Source of the DNA: a virus
Lineage: Duplodnaviria > Heunggongvirae > Uroviricota > Caudoviricetes
Length of the DNA: 64,000 nt
Strand: one strand, 5' to 3'
Virus record (IMG/VR): IMGVR_UViG_2609459800_000001
Shown here piece by piece: positions 44,992 to 51,311 of this stretch. The position numbers were made by a program, and so were the translations under genes. Position 1 is the first letter of the stretch. Every line of letters begins with the position of its first letter. Under the pieces are notes generated by a model that was given only the letters and a program-made list of their open reading frames with translations, was not told the origin of the DNA and searched no databases.

Positions 44992-45053
44992 TGGTAATCC
45001 TTAACAAGTGATTAGTGTTAAATTCCGTTCAAACACGATGCGAATTATTCTAA

Positions 45054-48636: not shown

Positions 48637-48769
48637 AAAGACCTCATAAGCGAATTTTTTACGCTCCAGGACAAACACTCATTCACAGCCAATACCGACT
48701 GACTCGATCCCTTTAGAAGGCACAGGATAATGCAAATCACTTGTTAGCTACGTTTCAAAGATATACATT

Positions 48770-48786
48770 ATTGCTCTAATTAATTT
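48770..48786 (+). promoter_or_regulatory. C1 operator upstream of ssb
   Basis: ATTGCTCTAATTAATTT, 16/17. Confidence 0.6.
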
Positions 48787-48805
48787 ATTTTATTAGGTAA
48801 GATAA

Positions 48806-49294
48806 GTGGCACAACGCGGTGTAAACAAAGTCATCCTGATTGGTACCCTGGGGCAAGACCCGGAGATCAGGTATATACCAAATGGCGGCGCGGTCGGAAG
48901 ACTCAGCATCGCAACGAATGAATCATGGCGCGACAAGCAAACGGGCCAACAGAAAGAGCAAACAGAATGGCATAAAGTCGTTTTGTTCGGAAAACTTGCT
49001 GAAATTGCGAGTGAGTATTTACGAAAAGGTTCTCAGGTCTACATCGAAGGGAAACTTAAAACCCGTAAGTGGACAGATGACGCCGGTGTAGAACGTTACA
49101 CGACGGAAATTATCGTCAGCCAGGGCGGCACCATGCAAATGATCGGCGCTCGCCGTGACGATTCACAGTCCTCAAATGGCTGGGGGCAATCAAACCAACC
49201 TCAAAACCACCAGCAATACAGTGGTGGCGGTAAACCTCAGAGCAACGCCAATAACGAACCTCCAATGGACTTTGACGACGATATTCCGTTTTGA
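48806..49294 (+). CDS. ssb: single-stranded DNA-binding protein
   Basis: OB-fold N-terminus [16 protein letters not shown]; Gly/Gln-rich linker; C-terminal DFDDDIPF. Confidence 0.95.
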
Positions 49295-49491
49295 ATGTGT
49301 AAAAAACGACTGAAAGAAAAGCGGTGGTCCAGACGCCGACAAAAGCACGAACTCGCAAACAAACGCCAAAGTTGGCAATGGCACGCGCTTTTCACGAAAA
49401 GAACACCCCGAGATATTGCTTTCGCTGGTGGGAAAACATTCCTGACCCACCTGAAGGCGCAATACATCAGGTTTTAAGCAGAGGAAAGACT

Positions 49492-50169
49492 ATGAATAAC
49501 ATGACAACGAAAGAGCTTTTGACGGCACTTCCAAAATACAAAAGCCATAAAACAGTTCGCGCCTCAAAAATCAAAGATATCGAAATTATCGCCCTAATGG
49601 ATGTGGTCCTTTTTTGCAACATCGAAGTCGTTGAGCCAGAAGGGGTAAAAGTCCATGTTGATAAAATGTTTTTGCAAAAACACCGACCAGAAATTGGCGG
49701 ATATCTGGTCGCTTATGAGGACGGATCTCTGTCCTATTCACCAGAAAAAACATTTGAAGAAGGCTTTAGTCGGACTAACGACTTCTTCGAAAATGGGGTA
49801 TCGCTCAGTATTGAAGGTCACAATGGGGTGACATTCATTACAGCCAGGGACGTAACTATTGCTGCCAGTGGCATCATTACCACACAAGAAGAAATCGACC
49901 TTGAAGCAGCCGACTTTTCTGACGCGCTGATGTGGCTGAAGGATGGCAAGAAAGTTGCTCGACGCGGGTGGAACGGCGAAAACCAATTCTGCTGGCTGGT
50001 TCCTGAAGGACAGTACCCGGCACGAATGGAAGCCATTAAGGGATATTTCCCCGGCGACCTCGTTCCGTATGGTGCTTATTTCGCCTTAAAAAATGCACAA
50101 GGTGTAGTTGTTCCGTGGGTGCCTTCTGTATGCGACTTACTGGCATGTGACTGGTTTGTAGTGGAGTGA
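49492..50169 (+). CDS. protein with C-terminal DUF2829-like (Tad2-like) domain
   Basis: ALMWLKDGKKVARRGWNG...WFVVE; ATG 5 nt after GAGGAAAG. Confidence 0.55.
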   Translation: MNNMTTKELLTALPKYKSHKTVRASKIKDIEIIALMDVVLFCNIEVVEPEGVKVHVDKMFLQKHRPEIGGYLVAYEDGSLSYSPEKTFEEGFSRTNDFFENGVSLSIEGHNGVTFITARDVTIAASGIITTQEEIDLEAADFSDALMWLKDGKKVARRGWNGENQFCWLVPEGQYPARMEAIKGYFPGDLVPYGAYFALKNAQGVVVPWVPSVCDLLACDWFVVE

Positions 50170-50175
50170 TTTAAC

Positions 50176-50964
50176 GTGGAAAATACTAAAGCAATTCAAT
50201 ACCGCCTGCGTAATGGCCAGAGTGTCGAAGTGACCATCAATAATGATGGTGTACCTGGCGAAAAGGTTTCTATCTCTGATCTGGCTATCGAAAAAACCAT
50301 CATGTGCCACCTTGGCTTTACTGAAGAAGTGAGCAAAAAGCATGGTGTAGCTATCTGGCGCACAATGGATACTGGCATGCGCAGATTCATTACTGCTCGT
50401 ACCCCTGGTATGACCATGATGGACCTCATGCAGATTGCGCCGCTGTTTGAGTGTGAACCTTTGGATGTATTCAGCAATCCAGCCATCTGCCAGCAGTTAT
50501 ATGGTGAGATGAAACTCGCGGTTACCCCCATTGTGCTGCATGAAGGATCGCTTGCTGGCGTATGGAAAGTAGAGCGAATTTCAAGCTACATGCCTTTCCA
50601 CATCCATGTCAACGGCGTAATCACAGGTGAAAATCAACCTGTTTCAGTTACAAAGTCAGACCTCAAGCGCGCAATTCTTGAAGCAAGTTGTCGAGTTATC
50701 GGCCTGGGCAAACAGTCTTATGTTTCCTTCCCGGCTGGCCCTGAAGGCCCGGCAGAAATTCTGATTATGGATGCCGATCTGCTCTGGCAAATACAGTTTC
50801 TGATTGGCAAAAGCATCATCCGCGCTGAAGAACTCGATCAGTACATTACCTGCACGATGACGGATGAAGTCAAAAGTGTGGCTATAGCCAATGCCCGGAA
50901 CCTATGTCGTGCTGCATTAACAGAACTGCAAGAAAACACCACGGAAGAAGTGGAAAGCGATTAA
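50176..50964 (+). CDS. hypothetical protein (262 aa)
   Basis: GTG-start ORF. Confidence 0.5.
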   Translation: MENTKAIQYRLRNGQSVEVTINNDGVPGEKVSISDLAIEKTIMCHLGFTEEVSKKHGVAIWRTMDTGMRRFITARTPGMTMMDLMQIAPLFECEPLDVFSNPAICQQLYGEMKLAVTPIVLHEGSLAGVWKVERISSYMPFHIHVNGVITGENQPVSVTKSDLKRAILEASCRVIGLGKQSYVSFPAGPEGPAEILIMDADLLWQIQFLIGKSIIRAEELDQYITCTMTDEVKSVAIANARNLCRAALTELQENTTEEVESD

Positions 50965-50968
50965 AAAA

Positions 50969-50990
50969 AATCCCGCCGATTGGCGGGATT
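50969..50990. terminator. bidirectional intrinsic terminator
   Basis: AAAAAAAATCCCGCC-gatt-GGCGGGATTTCTT. Confidence 0.6.
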
Positions 50991-50993
50991 TCT

Positions 50994-51311
50994 TCAATAT
51001 ACGATCTGGTCTACATGATCCCCAAAATCATCGTCGTCATCGTCGTCGTCCTCATCGCCACCCTCTACTGCTGGCCAATCAACAAACCAGCCAGCGTAAA
51101 GATGCAGCGTTCGGAGAACATCACTTGCGGGAGCATCAAGGGTGTTAACGAATCCCATATAGCTATTGGGATTTGCCCCAGCTATGGCTTCAGCGATCAT
51201 GTCCTCGGTAATGTCACCGGAGATAATGCTTAAACGCCCGGAAACTTCTTCATTATCATCAAATTCGATAATGGCATCTCCGCCTAATGGCGCTGCGATT
51301 TTAATCTGCAT
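50994..51311 (-). CDS. small acidic protein with poly-Asp tract (P1 hxr position)
   Basis: 105 aa; GGDEDDDDDDDD near C-terminus. Confidence 0.45.
   Translation of the reverse strand: MQIKIAAPLGGDAIIEFDDNEEVSGRLSIISGDITEDMIAEAIAGANPNSYMGFVNTLDAPASDVLRTLHLYAGWFVDWPAVEGGDEDDDDDDDDFGDHVDQIVY

Follow-up and report, generated by a model that had tools for sequence, protein, structure and literature searches.

A Dec-family OB-fold joined to a Tad2 domain: a candidate two-module anti-defense protein at an early locus of a P1-like phage-plasmid

The gene at positions 49492-50169 (+) of the window, by which the whole analyzed stretch of 64,000 nucleotides is meant, lies at a hypervariable early locus and encodes a protein that begins with an OB-fold of the Dec family, continues with a variable linker, and ends in a sponge domain resembling ModTad2; this architecture is what is new here. 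With a probability of about 0.7, the product is read as a two-module anti-defense protein of a P1-like phage-plasmid that would be made early, with Tad2 as a sponge and the OB-fold as either a second anti-signaling head or a helper of the sponge.

The window belongs to a P1-like phage-plasmid (Punavirus) and is, in the 2.6 kb around the gene, 97.7% identical to Salmonella phage SJ46 and 97.3% identical to phage vB_EcoM-Ro157c2YLVW; the flanking gene set of lyz, ssb, isaA, hxr, and ddrB is as in P1. The list of open reading frames gave an intact frame of 225 aa without interruption, whose ATG at 49492 lies three bases 3' of the ribosome-binding site AGAGGAAAG (49480-49488) and is the start chosen by PGAP in vB_EcoM-Ro157c2YLVW. 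In the SJ46 record the gene starts instead at an upstream GTG (49324), and a longer reading is possible; the ATG is supported by the divergent homologues, all of which begin just before a conserved LPKYK motif. The minus-strand frames listed beneath the gene (up to 82 aa) were without support.

As the earlier note had stated, the gene comes after ssb, which directly precedes it at 48806-49294 (+). This frame encodes a P1-type single-stranded DNA-binding protein, corresponds to ssb in P1, SJ46, and P7, and heads the presumed operon. The preceding 151 bp are those of P1 except for one base at 48720, and P1 annotation transferred by coordinate offset places the ssb promoter region, with P2ssb, P1ssb, and the C1 operator Ossb (48770-48786), at 48741-48803 (+). 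Ossb has one mismatch to the C1 operator consensus. When up to three mismatches were allowed, 13 sites in the window fitted this consensus (e.g., 9887, 29661, and 48770), against 0.29 expected by chance, as would fit the presence of an entire immunity regulon of the P1 type.

A spacer or leader of 197 nt (49295-49491, +) separates ssb from the gene; it was delimited by alignment with P1 and ends in the ribosome-binding site. A generic scan of this spacer detected no plus-strand terminator and no sigma-70 promoter, and the P1 late-promoter (Lpa) box AACAAGTGA was not found in it, while exact boxes stand ahead of neighboring late genes at 45003 (+) and 48737 (-). The spacer is annotated as coding from a GTG in P1 and SJ46, and P1 has kept it in front of isaA; it may be a leader, a regulatory RNA, or a translated extension. 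On the other side of the gene, an isaA homologue of 262 aa (50176-50964, +) matched phrog_2326 only, with no match in Pfam or NCBIfam. It is followed by a G+C-rich hairpin, ATCCCGCC-GATT-GGCGGGAT, which has an A-run and a T-run at its borders (50970-50995, with no strand assigned). Read from its sequence, the hairpin is a probable bidirectional terminator between isaA (+) and hxr (-), and the consensus terminator scan did not flag it. When positions 50965-51311 were compared with P1 (L001, 3088-4799), IS1 and isaB were found to be absent, and the gap between isaA and hxr consists of the hairpin only. The simplest reading of the layout would be that ssb, the Tad2 gene, and isaA form one C1-controlled early operon, which lends support to the placement of the gene in an early region by the earlier note.

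[quoted passage not shown] A DUF2829/Tad2 call had previously been made for the C-terminal ~80 aa from a motif, ALMWLKDGKKVARRGWNG...WFVVE, that corresponds to aa 145-225 of the product, and the call proved right by sequence, profile, and fold. The Pfam family PF11195 (Tad2-like) matched aa 141-224 and was covered from position 2 to position 73 of its 73 positions, with an E-value of 3.6e-23 and a score of 82.3 bits, where the gathering cut-off is 25 bits. A phmmer search against all PDB sequences returned ModTad2 (9eib) as the best match (E 7e-21), followed by HgmTad2/AcrIIA7, SPO1 Tad2, and SptTad2. An AlphaFold2 monomer model, built from 45 homologues, had a pLDDT of ~85-92 over most of aa 141-225 and of 68-76 (about 70) in a variable insertion at ~aa 171-190. 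It displayed the expected Tad2 fold of an N-terminal helix, an antiparallel sheet, and a helix-bearing insertion after beta2. In a Foldseek search against the PDB, the best 24 matches were Tad2 chains only, with target TM-scores of 0.61-0.87, and the top match was ModTad2 with His-ADPR bound (target TM-score 0.76).

ModTad2, or MoTad2, of a Myroides odoratus prophage (PDB 9EIB and 8V3E) was the best match in both sequence and structure. The two domains are 46% identical over 87 columns with one single-residue gap, the beta2-beta3 insertion included, and they share the GWNG and W-x-PS-x-x-D motifs. They differ in that ModTad2 stands alone with ~89 aa, whereas the window protein has an N-terminal extension of 136 aa. 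The short stand-alone form usual for Tad2 (~90-105 aa) is not what this protein of 225 aa presents, with an OB-fold and a linker in front of Tad2; such a length is typical of Tad2 but not obligatory, and functional fused Tad2 proteins exist.

By alignment, the core of the ADP-ribose pocket is kept, namely the W-N of the GWNG loop and the W, S, and D of the W-x-P-S-x-x-D segment. Residues W160/N161, W209, S212, and D215 align with W25/N26, W73, S76, and D79 of SPO1 Tad2, which are its gcADPR contacts (Yirmiya et al.). They also align with W21/N22, W87, S90, and D93 of HgmTad2, in which mutation of W21/N22 or S90/T92/D93 abolished gcADPR binding (Li et al.). The exception at this site is Cys214, where SPO1 has T78 and HgmTad2 has T92. 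SPO1 Tad2 (Gp34.65) and HgmTad2/AcrIIA7 have the fold in common with the window domain at ~32-36% identity, and their mutationally validated gcADPR contacts are kept in it. In contrast, the water-coordinating D67 and H71 of SPO1 are replaced by Q203 and V207, and the long insertion with which HgmTad2 binds cGG/cGAMP is absent from the window protein.

A role of the DUF2829 domain other than that of a sponge was also weighed, either as an anti-CRISPR, as once ascribed to AcrIIA7, or as a toxin. AcrIIA7 is itself a DUF2829 protein. RefSeq names the products of this gene 'DUF2829 domain-containing protein' or 'Thoeris anti-defense Tad2 family protein', while one 97%-identical plasmid copy (NZ_CP148988.1, 2121-2795) is named 'MW1434 family type I TA system toxin'; the naming is inconsistent. 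However, the Cas9 inhibition by AcrIIA7/HgmTad2 was not reproduced, and that protein is a gcADPR/CDN sponge (Li et al.). The conservation of the ADPR-site residues in the window protein likewise speaks against such a role, as does the lack of type I toxin features in a soluble protein of 225 aa with no antisense RNA evidence, and the probability of a non-sponge role is considered very small.

A sponge activity is predicted for the window domain, and its ligand may not be cyclic ADP-ribose, since the signals bound by ModTad2, the nearest characterized relative, are His-ADPR of type II Thoeris and, in a second pocket, cUMP/cCMP of Pycsar, and ModTad2 did not counter type I Thoeris. The residues through which ModTad2 contacts His-ADPR, which were sought for ligand specificity, are not given in the accessible texts. 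The beta2-beta3 insertion forms the second pocket, for CDN or cUMP, in HgmTad2 and ModTad2. In P1-like plasmids this insertion (aa 167-198; 49990-50085) was observed as three discrete alleles, ~31%, 47%, and 100% identical to that of the window, within near-identical Tad2 cores. Because the insertion is the second pocket in HgmTad2 and ModTad2, the alleles may differ in ligand range.

The N-terminal part had been described in the earlier note as an unrelated domain of ~140 aa. A non-Tad2 region of ~136 aa is indeed present, but it is identifiable: it begins with a Dec-family OB-fold with detectable sequence homology (aa 1-97; 49492-49782, +). Residues 4-97 folded with confidence (pLDDT 88.7, pTM 0.79) in the order beta1-beta2-beta3-alpha-beta4-beta5-alpha of an OB-fold. 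A profile of 23 homologues matched Dec of phage L (PDB 6E3C) with a probability of 93.7% and an E-value of 1.9e-7 over 84 columns, BLASTP gave an E-value of 2e-5 for Dec, and Dec was the sole significant match in a profile search of all PDB sequences (E 2.3e-4). In addition to the OB-fold topology, aa 1-97 and Dec have the motif K/RPE-GGYL...FE..Y in common. No PDB chain other than Dec rose above the generic OB-fold level for this domain, and no part of the 225-aa protein was matched in NCBIfam. Other identities were considered for the N-domain and set aside. Lockin is an unlikely identity, as it is a curved hexameric 'cog' reported to be absent from INPHARED phages, while the OB domain was found in 35 INPHARED records; TadIV-1 and the RyR-like Tad are structurally different, being helical or of the RyR type. 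The G+C content was 41-44% in the OB-coding part (within 49450-49900) and ~48-50% in the Tad2-coding part and the flanks, a difference too small to indicate a separate origin of the OB part.

The two domains are separated by a hypervariable, beta-rich linker of low confidence (NGVSLSIEGHNGVTFITARDVTIAASGIITTQEE; aa 98-136; 49783-49899, +), with a pLDDT of <50 and predicted strands. Dec is composed of a capsid-binding OB-fold (residues 12-89) and a C-terminal tail from which a trimeric beta-helix stalk is built (PMC6449081), and its similarity to the window protein continues weakly past the OB-fold into the beta-rich region. The linker aligned weakly with the start of the Dec stalk, and the BLASTP alignment runs into it (TARDVTIAASG versus TARTITL-TG). 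From this similarity, the linker is possibly a remnant of the stalk. The stalk is not a constant feature, since only 7-9 aa separate the domains in many other OB-Tad2 fusions.

A search of 1.84 billion cluster representatives with the OB profile recovered 2788 proteins (50%-identity clusters) at E<=1e-10 and 5079 at E<=1e-3. The latter number is an upper bound, because giant proteins with bacterial cadherin/Big_9 repeats were among the matches; four of these (P0121, P0122, P0124, and P0165) matched the profile in part and were treated as false positives. The best 140 non-giant representatives were used for a census of partners, of which 40 were no longer than 110 aa and 69 were longer than 150 aa. 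The OB domain is very common as a stand-alone phage protein of 80-110 aa, and neither Pfam nor NCBIfam has a model for it. Pfam partners among the 140 representatives were PF21825 (18 occurrences), PF11195 or Tad2 (12 occurrences), PF13876 (three occurrences), and the Acb2/Tad1 hairpin PF24729 (one occurrence), and the only other Pfam families were two single marginal matches. In a second collection, for which 120 proteins were listed, the partners were PF21825 (13), PF24729 (4), and PF11195 (2-3), and these were the only Pfam families seen. Tal et al. (2025) identify PF21825 as Sequestin and PF13876 as Acb4, and every recurrent recognizable partner of the OB-fold is a known immune-signal sponge family. 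One metagenomic protein of 298 aa (P0152) is an OB-Sequestin-Acb4 triple fusion. Several other metagenomic proteins (P0123, P0136, P0205, and P0213) consist of two OB domains of this family in tandem. The same OB domain was also seen within a 'MazG-like pyrophosphatase' (BFVD A0A384WK77; 394 aa; phrog_37613) of Vibrio phage vB_VpaS_KF6, a nucleotide-handling partner.

The OB domain is phage-specific, short, mostly stand-alone, and recurrently fused to sponges, and these are the marks of a candidate sponge in Tal et al. (2025). In that study, Sequestin was discovered by an analysis of fusions that considered Pfam families only, and fused sponges were shown to be functional. The OB partner would have been missed by the published search because the OB-fold lies outside Pfam. 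The published fused sponges (Acb4-Tad2 of Pasteurella phage Pm86, Tad2-Sequestin, and Sequestin-Acb4) likewise combine Tad2 or another sponge with a small phage module that exists alone, but both of their modules are proven sponges, whereas the partner in the window is an OB-fold outside Pfam. Tad2 homologues with a PDB 6E3C (Dec)-like or PF21825 domain were excluded before a screen of 84 proteins (Hadary et al.). A full-text search of the literature found no paper joining OB-fold, phage, sponge, and Thoeris, and a list of sponge families dated April 2026 included Tad1, Tad2, Acb2, Acb4, Sequestin, Lockin, and TadIV-1, with no OB or Dec-like family. An anti-signaling role of the OB-fold is favored by the guilt-by-fusion logic that uncovered Sequestin. 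The broader proposal that the N-terminal OB-fold defines a large non-Pfam phage family of anti-signaling modules, being a new sponge or a sponge-assisting domain, is a tentative one; systematic searches would then have overlooked this family because it is outside Pfam and its only solved relative is labeled a capsid decoration protein.

The homology to Dec suggests a different role, in which the protein is capsid-associated. Its OB-fold would bind the coat lattice or another structural protein, and Tad2 would be displayed on it; in Dec, the OB-fold forms the capsid-binding legs and the C-terminus a trimeric stalk. The sponge could then be concentrated at the place where TIR or cyclase sensors triggered by structural proteins fire, or the trigger could be masked. 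Alternatively, the protein could simply decorate the capsid, with a tip that binds surfaces. Structural proteins, including the capsid, are documented triggers or escape loci for TIR-based signaling. Additionally, two of the OB contexts that were examined are late or structural: Bas106_0070 of phage Bas106 occupies the slot of dec in phage L, and gp05 of Ralstonia phage GP4 lies in the interval between the portal and major head genes. The majority of contexts were early regions. For example, the OB-Tad2 gene of Klebsiella phage SopranoGao adjoins early regulators, and stand-alone OB genes (P0301 and P0345) are surrounded by small genes of early regions, with SSB, NinB, primase, or Dam close by, while the OB homologue of Dolphis is found among small hypothetical genes. 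These contexts mostly argue against a purely structural role of the OB-fold. One of the stand-alone proteins (P0301, 87 aa) is encoded ~0.8 kb upstream of SSB in three different metagenomic phage contigs (L011, 5001-5264; L012; and L013), a proximity that echoes the adjacency to ssb in P1-like elements.

The regulation of the gene in the window also differs from that of dec. While dec is a late gene near the terminase genes and its product ends in a trimeric stalk, the window gene lies in a predicted early operon, behind ssb and a C1 operator, and its product ends in Tad2. It lacks the Lpa box that neighboring late genes carry in exact form, and a late expression of the Dec type is not what this layout indicates. 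Reference P1 and P7 produce virions without the gene, the stalk-like linker is missing from many OB-Tad2 fusions, and a sponge on the outside of a capsid would not be carried into the next cell. Moreover, the most conserved family residues, H19, K20, Y75, D77, Y79, and S81 (window numbering), are kept in 95% or more of the 140 representatives and absent from Dec, which suggests that the bulk of the family may share a site that Dec lost or never had. The window domain itself has a Ser at position 79, where 97% of the representatives have a Tyr. The conserved basic and aromatic residues H19, K20, K63, H64, Y71, and Y75 hint at possible positively charged interface pockets in a homo-oligomer. A capsid-associated role is considered unlikely.

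The gene is an accessory one. It is absent from reference P1, where the same leader, ribosome-binding site, and ATG lead straight into isaA, and from P7, where nmpC follows ssb. D6 encodes a Tad2 of 146 aa (orf114) without the N-domain at a different genome position, where it adjoins a dUTPase gene, followed by isaA, and in D6-like contigs the dUTPase and Tad2 are fused. By megablast, the gene was found in 213 of 5426 complete E. coli genomes (~4%), nearly always in plasmids of ~90-100 kb, and it was present in 229 PLSDB plasmids. As the P1 lyz-ssb backbone was found in 498 of the 5426 genomes, roughly 40% of the P1-like elements have the gene, a proportion consistent with a DefenseFinder survey that identified Tad2 in 56% of the phage-plasmids of the P1 group and 93% of those of the D6 group (bioRxiv 10.1101/2025.09.12.675607). 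The presence of Tad2 in P1-like elements is already known from this 2025 survey and from the RefSeq product names. Whether the P1 locus also hosts Tad2-Sequestin fusions was considered and rejected, as P0063 is in a different, non-P1 context.

Compared with the window, the P1-like alleles were 55-94% identical in the OB part and 33-94% identical in the linker, while the Tad2 core was 85-100% identical in most. The segments of the gene recombine independently among these alleles, and the locus is mosaic as well as accessory. In P1-type and D6-type elements alike, Tad2 is always followed directly by an isaA homologue. Members of this IsaA family, of ~255-262 aa, follow Tad2 in the window and in two contigs (L010, 3041-3817; L019, 4233-5000), and the surrounding genomes differ. 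The two genes may travel together as a single cassette, and IsaA could have a function related to that of Tad2, perhaps in anti-defense as well.

This mosaicism bears on a further explanation, in which only Tad2 matters and the OB-fold with its linker is a passive scaffold for solubility or oligomerization, or a passenger of cassette shuffling. The free recombination of segments fits this explanation, and the same Tad2 occurs without the N-domain in D6 orf114 or fused to a dUTPase (P0056) or a tail-fiber repeat (P0023). In contrast, the frequent occurrence of the OB domain as a stand-alone phage protein points to an autonomous function, ~20 of its positions reach a conservation of 90% or more among clusters whose mutual identity does not exceed 50%, and its recognizable partners are confined to sponge families and not random. 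A passive OB-fold is regarded as quite improbable.

Under the preferred reading of a two-module anti-defense protein, the gene would most likely be co-transcribed with ssb from the C1-repressed early promoter, and the protein would be made once the repressor is absent, on infection or induction. The C-terminal Tad2 would assemble like other Tad2 proteins, which are homotetramers with pockets only at the protomer interfaces of the tetramer. It would sequester the nucleotide alarm signal of host TIR sensors of the Thoeris type, and removal of this signal would stop the effector from aborting the infection. Type II Thoeris is the largest TIR cluster in E. coli. Since the window Tad2 is closest to ModTad2 and has the same insertion, the likeliest ligands would be His-ADPR of type II Thoeris and possibly cUMP/cCMP of Pycsar, and 3'cADPR would also be possible. 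The OB-fold would be an autonomous module, most likely a second anti-signaling head that binds a ligand, and otherwise a helper for sponges.

Several observations count against this explanation. The Thr replaced by C214 contacts adenine in SPO1 and HgmTad2, and the sole characterized OB relative is a capsid decoration protein and not a sponge. If the N-terminal part trimerizes like Dec, its symmetry would clash with the Tad2 tetramer. The Ser79 of the window OB domain departs from the family. Plasmids that are nearly the same elsewhere diverge by up to 45% in their OB alleles, and such variation would be unusual if the domain bound a small molecule that does not vary.

The Tad2 assignment alone adds little, P1 and D6 phage-plasmids having already been reported with Tad2. 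The OB-Tad2 fusion is a form of Tad2 that was left out of functional screens, yet it is present in ~4% of complete E. coli genomes, in P1-like plasmids. An OB-fold whose recurrent Pfam partners tie it exclusively to four sponge families is a concrete lead. P1, which is naturally without the gene, and SJ46-type elements, which have it, provide a model pair for temperate phage-plasmids facing Thoeris and Pycsar in Enterobacteriaceae. If the OB-fold binds immune signals or masks a trigger, a very large family would be added to the seven or eight known sponge families, and the homology to a 'decoration protein' would have hidden that family. Were the OB-fold a new sponge or a sponge-assisting domain, the inhibitor that P1-like phage-plasmids encode at this hypervariable early locus would be two-headed.
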